22,098 nucleotides of DNA from a virus (taxonomy: Duplodnaviria > Heunggongvirae > Uroviricota > Caudoviricetes), in the IMG/VR virus record IMGVR_UViG_2713896791_000015. The stretch is one strand, 5' to 3'. Below, piece by piece: positions 737 to 22,088 of the stretch (position 1 is its first letter; each line of letters starts with the position of its first letter). The position numbers and the translations under genes were made by a program. The notes beneath the pieces are model-generated. The model did not search any database and was not told the DNA's origin. It saw only the letters and a program-made list of their open reading frames with translations.

Positions 737-1024
737 TTATTTTGCTTCCTCAGACTCCGCTAACATGAGGATAGCATGGCGGATCATATTCAATTTGCTG
801 CGATTATGCTTTTTACTTAACGCATCAAGTACTTGGTACTCGTATTCATTGAAACCAACACGAATAGATTTAAAATCACGTGGAGCGTCCTTATCGAGCA
901 CTTTGTTGTCTTCTGGTTGCTCACCCGGCACCAAATCAGCCTTACTGGCAAAATCCTCAATTCGGCGTTCAAGATCGGGGTCTTTTACTTCGGGGGCTTT
1001 TACCGATTTACGAGGCTTAATCAC
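737..1024 (-). CDS. parG: Small ParG-like ribbon-helix-helix centromere-binding partner of the ParA ATPase (GTG start overlapping parA stop)
   Basis: 95-aa ORF immediately downstream of and overlapping the ParA gene (GTGATTAA overlap); AAGGAG Shine-Dalgarno 7 nt upstream; C-terminal RHH-like segment SIRVGFNEYEYQVLDALSKKHNRSKLNMIRHAILMLAE; N-terminal basic, flexible tail. Confidence 0.6.
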   Translation of the reverse strand: MIKPRKSVKAPEVKDPDLERRIEDFASKADLVPGEQPEDNKVLDKDAPRDFKSIRVGFNEYEYQVLDALSKKHNRSKLNMIRHAILMLAESEEAK

Positions 1025-1658
1025 TTAATAACTCCTTAACCAACATCTGGATTTCACCTTTAGCTTTCCCGTTGTCCATCTCAACAACGCCCTTCCCTTC
1101 AGCCATGCAATCGCGGTAAACCTTACGATCACGAATGATGGTTTTCAGCAACTTCAGTTGCGGATATTCAGCCAAGTACTCTTTGGCCTCATTGGTTTCA
1201 TTCACAACCGGATTGGATGGGGCCATTGTTAAGACTGCGAACGCCTTAATGCTAGGATTAGGCATCAGGTCCAAAGCCTCTTCAAACACTTCAACAAAGT
1301 GTGCCAGCGTGTCTAAATCTGGTTGAGATGGTCTGAATGGGACCAACACAATATCTGCAGCGGTTATGCCTGTACGCATCTCTTTGCTATCGCGCCCGGC
1401 TGTATCAACAACTACAAATTCATAACGCTTATCCAGATCGAGAAGTGTTTCTCGAATATTACCAAACTTCTGGACACAATGAATTACAGGAGAAACCTCT
1501 GCCGTGTTACGGTCAGCTGCCCAGCGGGCAGCTGTTCCTTGCTTGTCTGCATCTAGTAACACTACATCCTTATTTGCGCGGGCAAGCTCCGCACAGATGT
1601 TTACGCTTGTGGTTGATTTTCCACAGCCACCTTTTTGGCTGACTACCAATATAATCAT
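1017..1658 (-). CDS. parA: ParA/ParF-type partition ATPase (small type Ib, deviant Walker A)
   Basis: Deviant Walker A QKGGCGKST near the N-terminus and the conserved Walker A' segment VVVDTAG; about 213 aa with no N-terminal HTH domain, hence the small type. Start moved to ATG at 1658, which has a GAGGAA SD 5 nt upstream; the ORF-track start at 1688 is a TTG. Confidence 0.85.
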   Translation of the reverse strand: MIILVVSQKGGCGKSTTSVNICAELARANKDVVLLDADKQGTAARWAADRNTAEVSPVIHCVQKFGNIRETLLDLDKRYEFVVVDTAGRDSKEMRTGITAADIVLVPFRPSQPDLDTLAHFVEVFEEALDLMPNPSIKAFAVLTMAPSNPVVNETNEAKEYLAEYPQLKLLKTIIRDRKVYRDCMAEGKGVVEMDNGKAKGEIQMLVKELLSD

Positions 1659-1739
1659 ATCCGTTCCTCGGTGTGATTTTGGTATCAAAACGGTTCCAGA
1701 TAAGAGCCTTTTTGATGCGGGACAGGCTCTATAATGGAG

Positions 1740-1945: not shown

Positions 1946-2290
1946 TCAATCAGGTAGAGAGTCAGCTAGATTGCGCGCCGACGCGCTTTTGGCTACAAAT
2001 TGCTCCTTCACTGGCTCAATGGAGGCAGGGCGCTCCTCAACCGCAGCTGGTAGTTCCAGGAAGGATGCCAGCATTTTTCGGATCAGCTCCGGGTTATTGT
2101 CTTCGGTCAGCAGGGAAGCCAGTAATCCTGGAAGCCTGCTATCGACTTCTCCCAGCGCAAGCCCTGCCAACAATGCAGTTCTTGCCATATCGCTATGTTT
2201 TTTTATCTTCTCGCTCGCCGCCTTTTCATTGGCATAAGCCTCTGGGCGAAGATAAATCATCACTTTCTTACGTTCCTGAGACATGGACAT
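1946..2290 (-). CDS. parR: ParR-like centromere-binding adaptor of the ParM system
   Basis: 114-aa ORF 6 nt downstream of parM in the same operon; size and position match R1-type ParR; N-terminal region predicted RHH-like. A second ATG at 2284 has better SD spacing (GAGG then 7 nt). Confidence 0.55.
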   Translation of the reverse strand: MSMSQERKKVMIYLRPEAYANEKAASEKIKKHSDMARTALLAGLALGEVDSRLPGLLASLLTEDNNPELIRKMLASFLELPAAVEERPASIEPVKEQFVAKSASARNLADSLPD

Positions 2291-2296
2291 ACCTCG

Positions 2297-3253
2297 TTAA
2301 CCGATTGCTTTCAGGCCATGAACAAGAGCAAGTTGCGGGTCATCCGCCACGAAGAAACGGTCATCACGAATATTAACTTGCACGCGAATTGCATCTGCCA
2401 CCAGCGGTGCGCCACCACCGATCACCATGACATGCGTATATCCTTTAAAGTCGCCAATCACATCAAGAACGCGGGTACGCAGACGGTCAATGCTTGCGGC
2501 AATGGCCTTTTTCACATCACCAATCGCTGATGGGTCATTGATATTGTCGTTCAGATAATCTTCATCGTGGCGGTTAATAATGAGCTGATCCACATTGTAA
2601 TTTGACGTTTCGGTATTGGCCCTTGCAAGTGCTTGCCTTACTTCCCTGGTGACCAAGGATACACCAAGATTCGAATCGCCAAAAACACGGGAAACTGCCG
2701 TCATTTGTCCAGCGACCATTGAAACATCAAGGGTAGTTCCACCCAAATCGACGATAAGAACAGAGTGGGCAGGGTTCAGATTGTCGCACAGGCTAATTCC
2801 CGCCGGGATAGACTCCGGGCGTACCGTAACTTTCTTAATAGTGAATACATTGCCTTTATTCAGCGTGACGGGGCGCATAAGACTGGCTTTCTTGCGCTCG
2901 ATGTTATCGAGATTGTATTGCGCGTCGTCGTCGTAAAACTCTGCCAGAGGCAGCGTGACCACAATTTCTACTTCCTGCGGCTCAATACCGCTTGTCAGCA
3001 GGGCATGGTGAACAGCCAGGACGTTAAGCGGGCTGTATTGCCATTCCACATTATTCGTCGGCAGAACATCTGGCGATATCAAGTCGTATGAATACTTTTC
3101 GTCGTCAATGACATAGTTAAACGGCTTGCCCGCACCAAATGTTGCTGACCATCCGCGCTTAAAGCTGTTAGGGCTGATGTGAGTGCGAGTTTCCCCGTCG
3201 TGCTCCCACAGCATTTTGATATTGGTTGAACCATCATCGATAAAAATGCGCAT
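2297..3253 (-). CDS. parM: ParM / StbA actin-like plasmid segregation ATPase
   Basis: Actin-fold phosphate-1 motif MRIFIDDGSTNIKM at the N-terminus, LIVDLGGTTLDVSMV (phosphate-2) and HVMVIGGGA (adenosine motif); about 318 aa. Start set to ATG at 3253 (GGAG SD 7 nt upstream); the ORF-track start at 3277 is GTG. Confidence 0.85.
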   Translation of the reverse strand: MRIFIDDGSTNIKMLWEHDGETRTHISPNSFKRGWSATFGAGKPFNYVIDDEKYSYDLISPDVLPTNNVEWQYSPLNVLAVHHALLTSGIEPQEVEIVVTLPLAEFYDDDAQYNLDNIERKKASLMRPVTLNKGNVFTIKKVTVRPESIPAGISLCDNLNPAHSVLIVDLGGTTLDVSMVAGQMTAVSRVFGDSNLGVSLVTREVRQALARANTETSNYNVDQLIINRHDEDYLNDNINDPSAIGDVKKAIAASIDRLRTRVLDVIGDFKGYTHVMVIGGGAPLVADAIRVQVNIRDDRFFVADDPQLALVHGLKAIG

Positions 3254-3278
3254 CTTCTTGCTCCACTTCTGAGACACA

Positions 3279-3435
3279 TTTGAGAATCAAAATGTAATTT
3301 TAAAAGAGAAGCACCCAAAAATCCACACCAAACGAGATAAAAAAGAGCGCTTGTTGAGTTTATTTTGAGAATATCTTAATCACCCACTGAATGATGGTCT
3401 GATGGTGAGATTTATTTGAGAATGAATTGAGAATA
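3279..3435. repeat. parC-like centromere: direct repeats of TTGAGAAT upstream of parM
   Basis: TTTGAGAATCAA (3279), TTTTGAGAATATC (3364), TTTGAGAATGAATTGAGAATAC (3415..3436): at least four copies of TTGAGAAT in the region upstream of parM, where type II systems carry their centromere. Confidence 0.55.
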
Positions 3436-3519
3436 CAAAAATATTCCGAAATTTAACTCTCCGTTTGAATGACGAAATAACAAAGTGATGACAATAGGAG
3501 GATAACCAGGAGGTGAAGA

Positions 3520-3804
3520 ATGAGCGCAATAGCCACCAGCGACACCCTTTGTTCTGGTCACGGAGGATTTCCGCCGCGACTGGTAGCTGAAACCGTTCCC
3601 TGGTTCACCGTTAACGGTAAGCCAGTTGTTGTAGATGGTGCCATGTTTCCCAGTCACACTGACGGTAACAGTGCACATCCAGGGGCAGCTGTATCGACGC
3701 GAGTATGGTTTTCGATAGGTGGAAAGGGAGTTGTCTGTGTAGGCGATCCGCTTTCTTGTGGTTCTGTTATCGCCAACGGCGAGGATATTTTTCAGGTTGC
3801 ATAA
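3520..3804 (+). CDS. PAAR-domain protein (spike-tip sharpening protein of contractile injection machines)
   Basis: 94 aa; GGAGG SD 6 nt upstream of ATG; Gly/Cys/His-rich with PAAR-like segments (SGHGGFPP, PSHTDGNSAHPGAAVS, GDPLSCGSVIANG); size matches single-domain PAAR proteins such as T4 gp5.4. Confidence 0.65.
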   Translation: MSAIATSDTLCSGHGGFPPRLVAETVPWFTVNGKPVVVDGAMFPSHTDGNSAHPGAAVSTRVWFSIGGKGVVCVGDPLSCGSVIANGEDIFQVA

Positions 3805-4610
3805 TGCTTGATTCAATAGGTGAAGTTAAAGCCTTCAAAATTCTGTCAGATGCCGGTATCTCTACACCAGAATCTATAACCATAAGCCGGGCAGCTTCTG
3901 TAAAAGCCTCATCGCTCGCCAGCGCCATACAGGGAATAGTTCACGCCGATAAAACCTATCCTGATTCTGTTTCGGCCTGGACTACTCAATTGCTTGGCTT
4001 TTCTGAACAGCTCAATGAGGCCAGCAAAGCGTCTTCATTACTGGCTGATTCTCTTTCCCCATACACCAAGCCATCAGAGCTGTTACAGATGAAGATTGGC
4101 TGGGAATGCTACGCAAAAGGTAACGAGCTGACCCCCATACCTGCTTTCGCCCTTGTTGAGGGAATGGGGAATGTTTCCATTCCGCAATCTCTAACGGACG
4201 CATTGACGGCGCTAAAACTTGATGCTCTGAAAACCGCCATGAACGCCATTAACGCAAAAATTGAAGCTGCCGGAAGTGCTGGTGGTGGTGAAAGCGATGG
4301 TGGACAGGGTGGTGCTGGGGGCGCTCAGGCTCCAGTCATTACTCAGGATGAAATTGATGCTTTACGGGAAGCAGTGACAGCCGCCGAAGTTTTACTCTCC
4401 GAAATTAACTCAGCAAGTGAGGGTGTCGTAGCCCTTACAGGTCGCATTAAAACGTCAACCACTCAGGCAACCAAAGGTTTAGAGAACGCTGTCGCCATCA
4501 CGTTAACTGGTTCTCTACTGGATAATGCAGTAATGAGTCCGGCAATCAGTTTAATCATGCCACAAGGCGTTATCGATGCGCTCCAAAAGAACACCAAAAA
4601 GGAACCATAG
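3804..4610 (+). CDS. Hypothetical protein, translationally coupled to the PAAR gene (TAATG overlap); helical with internal Gly-rich linker
   Basis: In-frame ATG at 3804 overlapping the PAAR stop codon; 268 aa; linker AAGSAGGGESDGGQGGAGGAQAP separates two alanine-rich helical halves; no recognisable catalytic motif. The ORF-track start at 3705 lies inside the PAAR gene and is rejected. Confidence 0.55.
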   Translation: MLDSIGEVKAFKILSDAGISTPESITISRAASVKASSLASAIQGIVHADKTYPDSVSAWTTQLLGFSEQLNEASKASSLLADSLSPYTKPSELLQMKIGWECYAKGNELTPIPAFALVEGMGNVSIPQSLTDALTALKLDALKTAMNAINAKIEAAGSAGGGESDGGQGGAGGAQAPVITQDEIDALREAVTAAEVLLSEINSASEGVVALTGRIKTSTTQATKGLENAVAITLTGSLLDNAVMSPAISLIMPQGVIDALQKNTKKEP

Positions 4611-4665
4611 AAACACCACTTAGGCACACAATAGGATGTAAATTGGTACATGTTTAACACCAAAA

Positions 4666-5139
4666 ATGAACCTGAAGAGGATGGTTTTGAAAAAGATAAT
4701 TTTGATTGTAATTGCGCTTTTAGCCATTTCTGGAATTTACCGAACAACGACGGCAGTTATCGAACACATCAGGTATGTCCGATCGCTTGAAGACTCAAAA
4801 TCACAACTGGAAAGCACGAACAACACGCTTTCTACCGCATTACAGTTAAGTGAGAACGCTCGCTCAGCCATGCTGACCGAAAACGAAAGAATTAAAGCAC
4901 TGGAAAAGGAGTACCAGCGCAAAACAGCAGAACTGAATGCCAACCTAATCAAACAACGAGAGGAAAGCCAGAATGAAATCACTCGCCTTGAAAATGCGTT
5001 ACGCCGTGCTGGGATTAACGATGTGCGTGTGCCTGATGACGTTATCAGGATGCAGCGGGAACGGGCAAAAGCCATCAACCAGCGTGCCAGTGAAAATTAC
5101 CGTAGAAGCCACCAGCAAGCCGCAGGCAAATCTGATTGA
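4666..5139 (+). CDS. Rz-like i-spanin (inner-membrane spanin subunit)
   Basis: N-terminal transmembrane segment ILIVIALLAISGIY followed by a long charged coiled-coil periplasmic domain, about 150 aa; contains an overlapping lipoprotein gene in the +1 frame. The in-frame ATG at 4681 is an alternative start. Confidence 0.6.
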   Translation: MNLKRMVLKKIILIVIALLAISGIYRTTTAVIEHIRYVRSLEDSKSQLESTNNTLSTALQLSENARSAMLTENERIKALEKEYQRKTAELNANLIKQREESQNEITRLENALRRAGINDVRVPDDVIRMQRERAKAINQRASENYRRSHQQAAGKSD

Positions 5140-5305
5140 TTACTCCCCTTGTTTAGTGCCAGAGGACACGCCAGTGCTGTTAAACAAGTATCCGACATAC
5201 GCTGAACAGTTATTCAGCACGATCGACGAATGCAACCAACGAAACGCACTGAATAACCAAAGAAACAGGGAGATTTGGGAAGGGAAGGGGGATCAAGGCT
5301 CCTGA
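4973..5305 (+). CDS. Rz1-like o-spanin (outer-membrane lipoprotein), overlapped architecture
   Basis: Signal peptide MKSLALKMRYAVLGLTMCVCLMTLSGC with lipobox LSGC; begins inside the Rz-like gene in another frame and extends 166 nt past its stop. Longer and less proline-rich than classical Rz1, so the call is tentative. Confidence 0.5.
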   Translation: MKSLALKMRYAVLGLTMCVCLMTLSGCSGNGQKPSTSVPVKITVEATSKPQANLIDYSPCLVPEDTPVLLNKYPTYAEQLFSTIDECNQRNALNNQRNREIWEGKGDQGS

Positions 5306-5751
5306 AGCCAGATGTCCTGGCTGTCAGCTTCTTCGAAACCGTGACAGACGTTAAAGTCACTCAAGCGATACTGACGCTGACGGCCTCTATTTCGCTCATG
5401 CCAATGCATATATCCACCAGCAAATGCCAGCGGACAATCACTATAGTCTATGTAACCAATACCATTCCCCAAACGTGCTTCGCGCGCACCGGCTTTCCAG
5501 GACAGTAGAAAAGAGTCACGATCCGCCAGCATAACAACAAAATCGTCCGGATCTCCGATACAGTGAAGAATACCTGCCTTACATAACTGCTTGAGCGCTT
5601 TGGACTGGCTCAGGATGTCTTCTCCGTAATACTGAAAACAATCATCAACAACAGCGGGATAGCCTGCCGGGGGATTCAGGCTGGTTGGTATAGCTGACGC
5701 GATCGACAGCATTAAGCGATATTGTGTTTTTGATGGGTTAACGTGGCTCAT
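5293..5751 (-). CDS. Hypothetical protein (Cys/His-containing), second gene of a divergent accessory operon
   Basis: 152-aa ORF with AAGGGA SD 5 nt upstream of ATG at 5751; 16 nt downstream of the preceding minus-strand gene; opposite in orientation to the surrounding phage genes; contains HCIGDPDDF and GGYMHWHERNRG segments; no family recognised. Confidence 0.5.
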   Translation of the reverse strand: MSHVNPSKTQYRLMLSIASAIPTSLNPPAGYPAVVDDCFQYYGEDILSQSKALKQLCKAGILHCIGDPDDFVVMLADRDSFLLSWKAGAREARLGNGIGYIDYSDCPLAFAGGYMHWHERNRGRQRQYRLSDFNVCHGFEEADSQDIWLQEP

Positions 5752-5767: not shown

Positions 5768-6160
5768 TCATTGTCGCCATGCGTTTTTTAACTCAGGAAT
5801 ATCTGCCATTTCAATTAACTTGCGAAGTCCAGCACTGACTTTCCCATTACCAACCATAGCAAGCCAATCTCTTACTGCTTTCGGCATGTAGAGCGTTGCT
5901 GTTACCGGCTCTTCAACCCTGGCAGGACATCCGCATACAGGCCATTTAATTGATTCCATAACTTCGGAGGCTGGGGTGAGGGCGGGGACATTGAGTATAT
6001 CTCTACCAGAAAACTGGATAACGATCCGTTCAGCTAGCGAGAGTATCTCACTTTCGGCAAGAATTGATGCCAACTGCGCCTCAACAAGAAAGCGACTTGT
6101 TGTGTTCAGAGAGTGGCTCTTAGCGCCATTTTTATACGAAACAAAGATTCGATACGCCAT
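5768..6160 (-). CDS. Hypothetical protein with C-terminal RHH-like segment, first gene of the divergent accessory operon
   Basis: 130-aa ORF; C-terminal TATLYMPKAVRDWLAMVGNGKVSAGLRKLIEMADI has a beta-strand/helix/G-x-S turn/helix pattern typical of ribbon-helix-helix DNA binders; N-terminal 90 aa unassigned. Confidence 0.5.
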   Translation of the reverse strand: MAYRIFVSYKNGAKSHSLNTTSRFLVEAQLASILAESEILSLAERIVIQFSGRDILNVPALTPASEVMESIKWPVCGCPARVEEPVTATLYMPKAVRDWLAMVGNGKVSAGLRKLIEMADIPELKNAWRQ

Positions 6161-19562: not shown

Positions 19563-19937
19563 ATGCTTTATGAAATAGACGCAAGACTTCAAACGAATGA
19601 GAGCGGTGTCATTATTGCAGAAGGAAGTACCGCAGCATGGATGGCCCGACTTGACGAGTGGCTACGAACCCCTGAAGGGAGTGTTTATGGTTTACCCTCT
19701 TGGGGGAATCCAATGGAAGAATTTAAGCATGAACCATTCGGCTCTGAAACTTCGCACATAGTTGAAGTGGCTATTGAAGGGAGAATGATGAAAAAACTAC
19801 GACAAGACTTGCCAGGTTTGGATGTGCAGGGGATTCGTTGCACATCAATTTCTGAAGATTCTTTATTAATTAGTTTTTATGCGAAAGGTGGGAGCATGGA
19901 TATTGTTATGCAGAAATCAAGTGGGGTGGGCGCGTGA
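19563..19937 (+). CDS. Baseplate wedge protein, gpW / gp25-like
   Basis: 124 aa; segment WLRTPEGSVYGLPSWGNPMEEF resembles the conserved LRTPxGSR...YGS core of P2 gpW / T4 gp25 as recalled; stop overlaps the next gene start (GTGA). Confidence 0.6.
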   Translation: MLYEIDARLQTNESGVIIAEGSTAAWMARLDEWLRTPEGSVYGLPSWGNPMEEFKHEPFGSETSHIVEVAIEGRMMKKLRQDLPGLDVQGIRCTSISEDSLLISFYAKGGSMDIVMQKSSGVGA

Positions 19938-21364
19938 CGATTACAGAATTACTGGACAAATTTAATGCCAAGTTAAATGAAAACACATGGTGGTCACGAT
20001 TTGTAAATAGTCAGTTTGTGCAGATGCACGCTATATTCGGATCACAGCTTATTTATATTGCCCGTACATTTGCAAGCCGCGGCCTCACTGAGGGACTTAT
20101 TTCAACGGCTACGCGCCGCTCAAGTATTTTAGCGGTTGCTGAAGACCGTAGCTACGTAGGGAGATTTGTTAGTGCTTCATACGGAACAACGTCTATAACC
20201 AATAAAACTGATCGGGATATTACGTTACCAGCCGGGGCTGAATTGCTTGCCAATGACCAAACACCTTTGGCAATTATTAACAGTGTTGTAATTCCTGCTG
20301 GAGGAACTGTTTCTGGCGTAGAAACTAAACAGCATGAAGCTGTTAGCGTTACATTTGATATTGAGAAGGAAACTTTATTTCTGACATTGTTGCTTTCCAG
20401 AGAGTTAACAAAAGAAGTCTCTAGCCTGGATGTTTATGTTATTACAGATGGCGTAGAAGAAAAATGGACATATAACCCATTATTTAGAATGTCCAGAGAC
20501 AAGAGTAAGCACTATTCATTGGCATATAAACCTACAGAACAACTAGGAGTCAAGTTTGGTGATGGTTCTATGGGTATGATGCCTCCAGCAGGCTGTCAGG
20601 TTCGAATCGATGTTATGGCTAGCCTTGGCGACTATACTTTGGCTGAAGGACAAAAGTTAGAACCGGCTGGAAATATCGCTCAATATGTGGAGTCACTAGA
20701 GTTTAAAACTGATTCGATCATTACCGGTGGTAGTGGTATGGAAACTACAGAAGAAACTCGAAATCGTGCTCAGTATTATGTTGCATACGATGAACAAGTG
20801 GTATGGGGCGGTGATTATCGCCAATTCATTCAGAATGTTGTTCATGGAACTTCATGGTTGAACGTTTGGGGCGAAGCGTTACAAGAGAAAATAACTGGGT
20901 TTGACGTTCGAAACATCAACAAAATCTTCTTTTGCGGACATAAACCGGGTGTAAGCCAGGCTCAGCTAAAATCAGAAATACTGAAAGCTCTAGAGAATGT
21001 TCCAAATGAGTTGAACAAGCGGTTCGAGTATGTAGATACAAATGAACAGCCATTTACTATAAATTTTACAGGTATTGCACGTAAAAATGTTCTGATAGAC
21101 GACGCTCAAAATGCTATTAAAGCAGCGTTGGAAGATAATTTTGGCCGTGATTCGTCATCATTCAGTTTATTACTACAGAGTGATGATGATTCCCAGCAAT
21201 GTTATGCACAGGTAAAAGTTAAAGATATTTGGCGAGTAATAGAGTCTCTGGATATGTTTCTGTCTTACGACATAACAATACAAAATATGAAAGATGCTGT
21301 TTACTTTAATGACTTCATTTATCTTGACGTGAAATCTTCAACGTTCAGCATTTCTTACCCGTAA
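19934..21364 (+). CDS. Baseplate J-like protein
   Basis: 476-aa ORF translationally coupled to the gpW-like gene (GTGA overlap) in the canonical W-J-I order; call by synteny and size. Confidence 0.55.
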   Translation: MTITELLDKFNAKLNENTWWSRFVNSQFVQMHAIFGSQLIYIARTFASRGLTEGLISTATRRSSILAVAEDRSYVGRFVSASYGTTSITNKTDRDITLPAGAELLANDQTPLAIINSVVIPAGGTVSGVETKQHEAVSVTFDIEKETLFLTLLLSRELTKEVSSLDVYVITDGVEEKWTYNPLFRMSRDKSKHYSLAYKPTEQLGVKFGDGSMGMMPPAGCQVRIDVMASLGDYTLAEGQKLEPAGNIAQYVESLEFKTDSIITGGSGMETTEETRNRAQYYVAYDEQVVWGGDYRQFIQNVVHGTSWLNVWGEALQEKITGFDVRNINKIFFCGHKPGVSQAQLKSEILKALENVPNELNKRFEYVDTNEQPFTINFTGIARKNVLIDDAQNAIKAALEDNFGRDSSSFSLLLQSDDDSQQCYAQVKVKDIWRVIESLDMFLSYDITIQNMKDAVYFNDFIYLDVKSSTFSISYP

Positions 21365-21374
21365 TGAGGTTGGC

Positions 21375-22088
21375 ATGAAAGATAATTGGCTTAAGGAACG
21401 ATTAACTAAAGTAAAACAGGATTCACATCTCTGGAGTGCCTTTATCGACGCTTTACAGGATGTCTGGAATGAGGCAGTAGAACCAATATTAACAAGAATA
21501 AGTAACAGAAAATCCTTCTTCACTATGGACAGTGAGGATATGGATGCCCGCATTGCTGAATACGGGCGTTTTTTCGTCATCACTGAAAAAGATAAGGCTC
21601 GTAGGCCAATGCTACTGGCACAACGTTTAGATGAAGTGCACTTTAAAGGCACTATCTTGCCTATTGAGCAGACATTCTGGCGTGAATTCGGTTGTATTCC
21701 TGTTAGCTGGGAACCGCTGTATGCACCTGTAAATATAGAAAAACACCCCTATGGTTCATATTTTGCGACCGAAATAGAAATACCTACGGCACAGGCTCAA
21801 TTCGGTGAGTTCTTCCTGACATCAAGGGGGCTGGTCGTTGTTGATCAGAACAAGCTATATCGCTCATATGGAGAGCAGGATAAAGAAGCCGCTGTGCAGA
21901 AATTGTTATCTGACTTCGAAACAGTAATAGCCCCTTTGTTGCCATTGCATATTGTTTTTGATGGCGTCTCGTTTCGGCTTAGTGCTGTATTCCCTGAAGT
22001 GGCAGAAATACTAAATTGCTTGTCTACGGATGTTTCGGTTGAACCGCCCCGGAAATCCTGGAGACTAAACTCCCTGAGAAAGAGGTAA
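21375..22088 (+). CDS. Baseplate / tail protein I-like
   Basis: 237-aa ORF directly following the J-like gene; TGAGGT SD; canonical position of gpI in P2/Mu-type baseplate operons; followed by AAGAGG plus ATG at 22093, the start of a further gene cut by the window end. Confidence 0.4.
   Translation: MKDNWLKERLTKVKQDSHLWSAFIDALQDVWNEAVEPILTRISNRKSFFTMDSEDMDARIAEYGRFFVITEKDKARRPMLLAQRLDEVHFKGTILPIEQTFWREFGCIPVSWEPLYAPVNIEKHPYGSYFATEIEIPTAQAQFGEFFLTSRGLVVVDQNKLYRSYGEQDKEAAVQKLLSDFETVIAPLLPLHIVFDGVSFRLSAVFPEVAEILNCLSTDVSVEPPRKSWRLNSLRKR

Follow-up and report, generated by a model that had tools for sequence, protein, structure and literature searches.

We describe a pair of overlapping genes in a stretch of viral DNA 22,098 nucleotides long (IMG/VR record IMGVR_UViG_2713896791_000015), the whole of which is hereafter named the window. 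The first gene encodes a PAAR-domain protein of 94 residues orthologous to UpfC of phage P1, and the second encodes an all-helical protein of 268 residues orthologous to P1 UpfB. Together, the two genes likely specify the assembly at the distal end of the contractile tail in a D6-type, P1-like plasmid prophage. The 94-residue protein is almost certainly a single-copy cone capping the gp5 spike. By analogy with P1, the 268-residue protein is likely to be a tripod standing on the PAAR cone; this step is less certain than the spike tip itself because it depends on the assignment of density in P1.

In the mechanism that we propose, one copy of the 94-residue protein would form a small cone that caps the blunt end of the trimeric gp5 β-helical spike, as gp5.4 does in phage T4. 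The acidic, helical 268-residue protein would bind the cone and make a three-legged tripod projecting from the extreme end of the tail. When the sheath contracts, it is this tripod that would be pushed against the outer membrane and through it. Both genes would be carried by one late mRNA starting at a promoter box common to the head, sheath, and hub/spike operons and probably running on into the spanin genes Rz/Rz1, while the stop/start overlap between them would help to match their synthesis. Finally, the pair would adjoin the parMRC partition locus only through the insertion of maintenance and accessory genes between gene 5 and upfC.

The window can be assigned by sequence comparison to a D6-type (P1-like) plasmid prophage of Escherichia coli. 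Positions 3300-5400 match Escherichia phage D6, itself a P1-like plasmid prophage, at 98.9% identity and the E. coli plasmid CP157128.1 at 100%. The same region is contained in 121 PLSDB plasmids of ~92 kb, nearly all of them non-mobilizable, from Escherichia, Salmonella, and Shigella. The pair is already known: its role in P1 was published in 2022 (bioinformatics) and in 2026 (cryo-electron microscopy, cryo-EM), and existing D6 annotation likens the two genes to upfC and upfB, orf57 being labelled “PAAR motif...; similar to P1 gene upfC” and orf56 “similar to P1 gene upfB”. Added here are the pairing of the two genes in 39/39 loci, a backbone of gene order explaining their location, a candidate promoter box, and a hotspot of divergence and recombination in upfB.

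The PAAR protein and its UpfB-like partner

An earlier note on this DNA, made from the sequence alone, had proposed a single-domain PAAR protein of 94 residues, and profile searches agree with it. The profile phrog_281 (“PAAR motif”) matches the protein with an E value of 8e-29, and Pfam PAAR_motif (PF05488) with 27.2 bits for a gathering score of 27.0, a marginal match. Pfam PAAR_motif is also carried by the orthologue in L046, a more distant contig. The best PDB match is “UpfC” of phage P1 (9vyi_A; E value 1.4e-35), to which the protein is 57% identical over 94/94 residues in a gap-free alignment. T4 gp5.4 is matched as well (5iv5, E value 1.4e-5; 4ku0, E value 2.7e-5). According to Pfam, the protein consists of a single PAAR domain, without extension domains, and the sole match to a chain annotated as a PAAR protein of the type VI secretion system (T6SS) is insignificant (8gra_J, E value 0.5). 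On these matches, the protein can be placed in the gp5.4/UpfC class of single-domain spike-tip proteins.

PAAR structures hold a metal at the apex of the cone by means of three histidines and one cysteine. In 16 diverged homologues of the 94-residue protein, H14, H46, and C80 never vary, and H53, C11, and C73 hardly do. The ratio of nonsynonymous to synonymous substitution rates (dN/dS) of the gene is 0.04, and by this measure the open reading frame (ORF) is a real gene under strong purifying selection. The GGAGG that precedes it, part of its Shine-Dalgarno sequence (Table 1), is kept in most related loci.

The 268-residue protein is matched over residues 1-265 by phrog_1559, a profile of unknown function, with an E value of 8e-110. 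With tblastn, P1 UpfB (E value 1e-6) and P7 Upf63.6 are found at 27% identity and 98% coverage, and hhalign aligns a 25-member family profile with P1 UpfB over 258 columns (probability 99.9%, E value 7e-33). The protein is clearly, by these alignments, a full-length UpfB homologue. Pfam holds no family for it or for 24 of its relatives, DUF7217 remaining unmatched even at an E value of 10, and a sequence search of the PDB returned only artefacts of the Gly-rich linker, namely the (GGGGS)n linkers of designed proteins. The UpfB family is small, comprising 39 clusters at 90% identity, and an exhaustive profile search of 1.8 billion representatives gave 73 clusters at 50% identity. About 50 of these are complete and encode single-domain proteins of ~240-265 residues, the exception among them being one weak match to a repetitive protein of 907 residues; the remainder are fragments.

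The AlphaFold2 model of the protein (window 3804-4607) consists of helices only, with a predicted local distance difference test (pLDDT) score of 88.3 and a predicted template modelling (TM) score of 0.80. It comprises a helical bundle (residues ~1-158), a 58-residue helix (181-238), and two short C-terminal helices. Residues 160-173, corresponding to the Gly-rich stretch, are disordered (pLDDT <50). The Gly-rich linker as a whole covers residues ~155-178 (DNA ~4266-4337); its length and composition vary across the UpfB family, with Gly/Ser in D6 and P1 and Pro/Ala elsewhere. Among near-identical D6-type plasmids the linker is also polymorphic in length, the encoded proteins having 260-269 residues (P0001-P0015). 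Conservation within the family is strongest at the N-terminus and in the segment PSELLQMKIGWECYAKGN-L-P-P-F-LV (residues 90-118). The protein is acidic and rich in Ala, Ser, and Leu. It has no transmembrane segment (maximum KD19 1.39) and no membrane or signal features. Its gene has a dN/dS of 0.16-0.18 and can be taken as real. A longer in-frame ORF of 301 residues starting at 3705 was considered and rejected, since the homologues all start with M-L-D/E (invariant M1 L2 D3) at 3804.

A Foldseek search of the PDB with this model gave no match with an E value <0.04; TM-scores were ≤0.3 and the structures matched were generic helical bundles. When BFVD was searched, the best matches were DUF7217 proteins of Pectobacterium phage Wc4, Serratia phage 3M, and Escherichia phage FEC14, and a protein of Salmonella phage 38 was also matched. 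For these matches, the probability is ~1.0 for the top four (FEC14 0.87), the E values range from 1e-3 to 0.3, and the TM-scores from 0.3 to 0.6. As a weaker extension of the analysis, the DUF7217 proteins of other large myoviruses are possibly remote structural relatives of the UpfB type, to judge from these models. A literature search on DUF7217 found nothing.

The two genes overlap by one nucleotide in the sequence TAATG, where the last A of the stop codon of the PAAR gene is also the first A of the start codon of its partner. The earlier note had described this overlap with a helical protein containing a Gly-rich linker, in agreement with the sequence and with the AlphaFold2 model. A Shine-Dalgarno-like AGGT lies 6 nt before the second ATG, within the final codons of the PAAR gene. 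Nearly every D6-type locus combines a stop/start overlap (TAATG, ATGATG, or GTGATG) with a conserved (G)AGGT, whereas in P1 and in Cronobacter phage JK004 the genes do not overlap and are separated by a spacer of 8-9 nt (8 nt in P1) with an AGGAG of its own. We infer from this anatomy that the PAAR gene and its partner are translationally coupled.

To follow the pairing, we compared 39 P1/D6-type loci, namely D6, P1, JK004, and 36 IMG/VR contigs. In 39/39 of them, the UpfB homologue is immediately preceded by a PAAR gene, with identities to the window proteins of 53-100% for the PAAR protein and 27-100% for the UpfB homologue. The same arrangement is found in two more distant contigs, L047 and L048.

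Proposed position of the pair on the tail and rival roles for the UpfB-like protein

P1 UpfC was matched to T4 gp5.4 by HHpred (Gonzales et al. 2022, PMC9024508). In the 2026 cryo-EM study of P1, UpfC was built, with its position known to atomic resolution, as a monomeric tip on the gp5 trimer, and a “novel tripod UpfB” was described as anchored on this tip (PMC12810830). A later paper speaks of “three copies of UpfB attached to UpfC” and calls the role of the tripod unclear (PMC13611949). The pair in the window is orthologous to this one, with full-length identities of 57% for UpfC and 27% for UpfB. Lengths are similar (94 residues and about 262-268 residues), the order upfC-upfB-Rz-Rz1 is the same, and plasmid-maintenance genes adjoin the pair in both cases. 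P1 UpfB likewise consists of an N-domain, a low-complexity linker, and a C-terminal helix. On the other hand, UpfB is highly diverged between the two, and RepA/ParAB lie downstream of the pair in P1, whereas ParMRC lies upstream in D6. The suggestion of the earlier note that the coupled protein could be a spike-associated factor thus gains support from orthology to P1 UpfC/UpfB combined with the P1 cryo-EM study (PMC12810830).

T4 gp5.4 (5iv5, 4ku0) is also a single-domain PAAR cone, of ~95 residues, on the gp5 β-helix. In-frame deletions of upfB and upfC in P1 leave plaquing normal (PMC9024508), and a genome-wide CRISPR interference (CRISPRi) screen of P1 found both genes non-essential (PMC10695390). 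T4 gp5.4, like P1 UpfC, is dispensable for plaques on standard hosts: assembly proceeds without it, and it is needed for fitness and for infecting deep-rough lipopolysaccharide (LPS) mutants (PMC12407873). T4-like phages differ in that gene 5.4 belongs to the baseplate cluster, where it comes next after genes 5 and 5.1, and in that they have no UpfB homologue. The gp5.1-gp5.4 complex of T4 is known from modelling only (PMC13611949).

Several observations weigh against placing the pair at the tail tip in this way. The window protein shares only 27% identity with P1 UpfB, and the tip position was measured in P1 and would extend to D6-type virions by analogy. UpfB was not built de novo in the P1 map; an AlphaFold3 trimer was fitted to a medium-resolution map (PMC12810830), and UpfB is absent from the PDB. 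The stoichiometry also conflicts between the two papers, which report a “three trimeric tripod” (PMC12810830) and “three copies” (PMC13611949). Liquid chromatography-tandem mass spectrometry (LC-MS/MS) of P1 virions detected neither UpfB nor UpfC (PMC9024508). A role in penetration is unproven, because deletion or knock-down of upfB and upfC in P1 leaves plaquing intact. Finally, the pairing has exceptions. In L046, the PAAR and UpfB-like genes are not adjacent, 1.5 kb and four ORFs lying between them, and in L045 (GCA_033448265.1) no PAAR gene was found within 3 kb of the UpfB-like gene. The idea, raised in the earlier note, that homologues of the 268-residue protein always neighbour a PAAR gene therefore holds for the 39/39 loci, L047, and L048, and fails for L046 and L045.

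The 268-residue protein might instead be an assembly chaperone or adaptor for the PAAR tip or the spike, acting transiently and absent from the virion, like the Eag and DUF4123 adaptors of T6SS. Its counterpart UpfB went undetected in the LC-MS/MS analysis of P1 virions, tight pairing and translational coupling are typical of chaperone-client pairs, and the cryo-EM assignment of UpfB was made by model fitting only. However, the same LC-MS/MS analysis also missed UpfC and gp5, which are certain virion components, and the P1 tip carries extra helical density that the UpfB model fits. In addition, deletion of upfB causes no defect in assembly or plaquing, as would not be expected of a required chaperone, and a protein of 268 residues with a confident, elongated fold is large for a client of 94 residues. 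We consider the chaperone role improbable.

The earlier note had also entertained a cargo or effector in the manner of T6SS, riding on the spike tip. Such a protein would be set free in the periplasm or membrane of the host, for instance to help, as a membrane-active helical protein, in forming a DNA conduit. The proposed arrangement resembles the PAAR genes of T6SS with their effector and immunity genes, in that the cone sharpens a trimeric spike and the product of the next gene binds the cone. It differs from them in that the PAAR protein lacks extensions and belongs to a phage tail rather than a secretion apparatus, and in that the partner has neither a toxin domain nor an immunity gene. 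No enzyme domain, Pfam match, or transmembrane segment was detected in the partner either, its fold matches are generic and uninformative, as described above, and the gene is dispensable in P1. Delivery as cargo is, on this evidence, quite improbable, and we did not retain this version of the proposal. A tripod on the spike tip remains the preferred reading, and although both genes are dispensable in P1, the tripod may plausibly serve in penetrating the envelope or in determining host range.

Gene order, transcription, and neighbours of the pair

The earlier note had located the pair about 16 kb from the baseplate genes and beside a partition centromere, and considered that it might be part of a displaced spike module. 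The baseplate wedge genes indeed lie 16.0 kb downstream of the pair, at 19563-22088. However, the spike and hub genes (P1 genes 5 and 6) are outside the window, and in D6 they lie ~7.3 kb upstream of the PAAR gene, which is therefore closer to spike gene 5 than to the wedge genes that had served as the reference.

Gene order in the more distant contigs points to the origin of this arrangement. In L046, the order is 7-24-6-5-PAAR-(four small ORFs)-UpfB-like-23-22, with the PAAR gene directly after spike gene 5. This locus is a Logan contig (SRR26958235, 3925-6522), and its four intervening ORFs are non-spanin ORFs of 82, 166, 65, and 108 residues. In L048, the order is 6-5-(ParE/Phd toxin-antitoxin pair)-hrdC-PAAR-UpfB-Rz-Rz1-HicAB-23-22; in L047, 6-5-...-methylase-PAAR-UpfB-23-22, spanins being absent; and in L045, methylase-UpfB-like-23. 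These orders define a conserved morphogenetic backbone, [7-24-6-5]-[upfC-upfB]-[Rz-Rz1]-[23-22-21...], with accessory cargo varying at the joints. The joint between gene 5 and upfC holds, in the ~7.3 kb of D6, hrdC, two DNA methylases, a glnS paralogue, a parA-like gene, parR, and parM. In P1, it holds uhr, hrdC, dmt, and more, and the rep/par genes lie at the next joint, after the spanins and upfA. It follows from the comparison with distant relatives that the apparent displacement corresponds to insertion of accessory and plasmid genes rather than to relocation of the PAAR gene. The displaced module of the earlier note can accordingly be understood as backbone parted from gene 5 by accessory and plasmid-maintenance cargo. 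In T4-like phages, Aeromonas AS3, and Yersinia YerA41, the PAAR gene is within the baseplate cluster and no UpfB-like partner is annotated; the displaced upfC-upfB pair appears specific to the P1/D6 group on the genomes compared.

The partition genes that precede the pair form a complete ParMRC (type II) set, with an actin-like ParM, a ParR/StbB adaptor, and repeats upstream of parM. The parC-like repeats directly upstream of the pair had been noticed in the earlier note, and Pfam matches to ParM and ParR, together with iterons in an 11-bp register, back this description (Table 1). The iterons occupy the divergent intergenic region shared with parM and make up a putative parC-like centromere; they are context only, outside the spike module, and only the D6-type subset of loci has parM ahead of the PAAR gene. 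Positions 3200-5500 contain a single sigma-70-like match, TTGAGA-18-AATATT at 3416-3445 (+), which is made of iterons and faces the PAAR gene. ParR binding at the iterons could in principle also affect rightward transcription. A ParA-like ORF of 223 residues (1017-1688, minus strand) adjoins the complete ParMR system. It matches a ParA-like PHROG profile in its C-terminal part only, and the D6 annotation relates it to the C-terminal third of P1 ParA. Further upstream, the window begins within a glutaminyl-tRNA synthetase paralogue borne by the phage-plasmid (1-about 468, minus strand; D6 orf62).

A putative late-promoter box precedes the PAAR gene (Table 1). The pattern AAATMAC-N9-A-N3-T has 4 matches in the window, all on the plus strand, versus 0.62 expected, and 0/100 shuffled sequences reach 4. 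Three of the four boxes are followed, after 45-70 nt, by a structural operon whose first gene is upfC, gene 23, or pmgB. In D6, a box is also present 62 nt before the 7-24-6-5 operon. The positions of the boxes in the D6 locus L001 are 1681, 12176, 14950, and 23583. The box upstream of the PAAR gene is conserved in diverged loci, and its distribution suggests a candidate late-promoter element common to the structural operons. P1 late promoters bear a conserved Lpa-binding repeat (PMC10695390). P1 differs in this respect from the D6 type, the box pattern having no match upstream of upfC or of gene 23 in the P1 locus L002. Scans of 3200-5500 for sigma-70 promoters and for terminators gave results at or below the chance level. 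Since no terminator-like site lies between 4610 and 4666, from the end of upfB to the spanins, the four genes probably share one transcript. That this transcript is late and coupled is likely, and we hold this view with moderate confidence.

The two genes that follow encode an i-spanin and an o-spanin. The o-spanin gene overlaps the 3′ end of the i-spanin gene in another frame, as in two-component Rz/Rz1 systems. An i-spanin followed by an overlapping o-spanin with a lipobox comes after the UpfB homologue in every P1/D6-clade locus examined, even where tblastn with the D6 spanins missed them. Both D6 spanins are annotated merely as hypothetical. In the D6 records (L001 13785-14006), the o-spanin is a “hypothetical protein” of 73 residues with its start placed after the signal peptide; the full ORF has 110 residues, or 103 from the second Met, and includes the LSGC lipobox. 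Similarly, in the P1-like record MH422554, Rz1 is annotated as a protein of 46 residues with its start downstream of its LSGC lipobox. The mixed module of tip and spanin genes that the earlier note had recognized is real and conserved in the enterobacterial clade, and it is lost in more distant relatives.

The spanins also have a history of their own. In comparison with L017, the synonymous divergence (dS) is 0.009 for Rz, versus 0.25-0.35 for upfB and the PAAR gene, and the contrast in dS, together with the breakpoints, marks the spanins as a separate exchange unit. In several pairs of plasmids, the common history of Rz/Rz1 is much more recent than that of upfC/upfB. That the 268-residue protein belongs to a lysis cassette with the spanins, for instance as a spanin regulator whose pairing with the PAAR gene is incidental, is a most improbable reading: Rz/Rz1 do come after the UpfB homologue, without an intervening terminator, throughout the P1/D6-clade loci examined, but L045, L046, and L047 have the capsid gene directly after the UpfB-like gene, L047 retains the PAAR gene immediately upstream despite lacking spanins, the recombination breakpoints lie inside or at the end of upfB, and neither membrane nor signal features are seen in the protein.

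A further accessory insert at a joint of the backbone separates the spanins from capsid gene 23; it consists of two conserved genes of unknown function (phrog_8101, 5293-5751; phrog_7830, 5768-6160; both on the minus strand).

Table 1 Features of the window in and around the upfC-upfB pair
Feature	Position	Strand	Evidence
ParR	1946-2290	-	Pfam Plasmid_stab_B, E 3e-11
ParM	2297-3253/3277	-	Pfam StbA_N, E 1e-69; ParM C-terminal domain, E 2e-54
Putative parC-like iterons TGAGA/TTGAGAAT, 11-bp register	3270-3437 (3270-3290, 3352-3372, 3403-3437)	.	Repeat families D1, D2
Putative late-promoter box AAATAACAAA with -10-like GACAAT (3490-3495), 25-45 nt before the PAAR start codon	3475-3495	+	Pattern scan
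Shine-Dalgarno GGAGGT of the PAAR gene, 5 nt before ATG	3509-3514	+	Read from sequence
PAAR-domain protein, predicted spike tip, 94 aa; P1 UpfC / D6 orf57 orthologue, T4 gp5.4 type	3520-3804	+	Hidden Markov model profiles, PDB, identity
Putative coupling junction: AGGT 3794-3797, stop TAA 3802-3804, start ATG 3804-3806	3794-3806	+	Sequence
UpfB-family all-helical protein, 268 aa (D6 orf56)	3804-4610	+	phrog_1559, tblastn, hhalign, AlphaFold2
i-spanin (Rz-like), 157 aa, transmembrane helix at residues 6-24	4666-5139	+	phrog_214, phrog_89, phrog_2466 “Rz-like spanin”; KD19 2.48
o-spanin (Rz1-like) lipoprotein, lipobox LSGC	4973-5305	+	phrog_456, phrog_30284 “Rz-like spanin”; weak Pfam O_Spanin_T7
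Box match, 45 nt before the PAAR ATG	3475	+	Pattern scan
Box match, 70 nt before capsid gene 23	6249	+	Pattern scan
Box match, 59 nt before pmgB-sit	14880	+	Pattern scan
Box match, 195 nt before the wedge genes	19368	+	Pattern scan

Divergence of upfB and a possible role in envelope penetration

When the window is compared with the related locus L019, the body of upfB (3901-4500, ~codons 33-233) is the most diverged part of an 8-kb region. Nucleotide identity falls to 50-64% in 3901-4500, compared with 72-97% in the flanks, and recovers sharply at 4501. The same hotspot is seen against L019-L022. In the comparison with L017, identity rises from 87-88% to 99-100% at about 4350, just past the stretch that encodes the linker. 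By this pattern, the linker behaves as a module boundary inside upfB. Positive selection on upfB was rejected as a general statement, the dN/dS reported above being that of purifying selection.

This pattern of divergence and recombination fits an exposed, host-facing protein, without being proof of one. Going further, a UpfB-type tripod might be a modular, exchangeable factor of envelope specificity or penetration rather than a passive ornament, a proposal that we regard as doubtful. In the same vein, and by analogy with T4 gp5.4, the tip complex could be conditionally essential, perhaps setting which envelope or LPS variants are open to injection.

Overall, the pair would illustrate how some contractile-tail phages decorate their PAAR spike tip with an extra protein. 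If the kinship with DUF7217 proteins is true, such tip decorations would be widespread. For annotation, the useful context consists of the pairing rule, the backbone that accounts for the location beside parMRC, the hotspot in upfB, and the candidate late-promoter box, which ties the displaced pair to the other structural operons. The tip is the first part of the virion to meet the host envelope, and its composition matters for the way in which P1-type phage-plasmids may cross the outer membrane; in E. coli, Salmonella, and Shigella, these elements commonly carry accessory and resistance genes.

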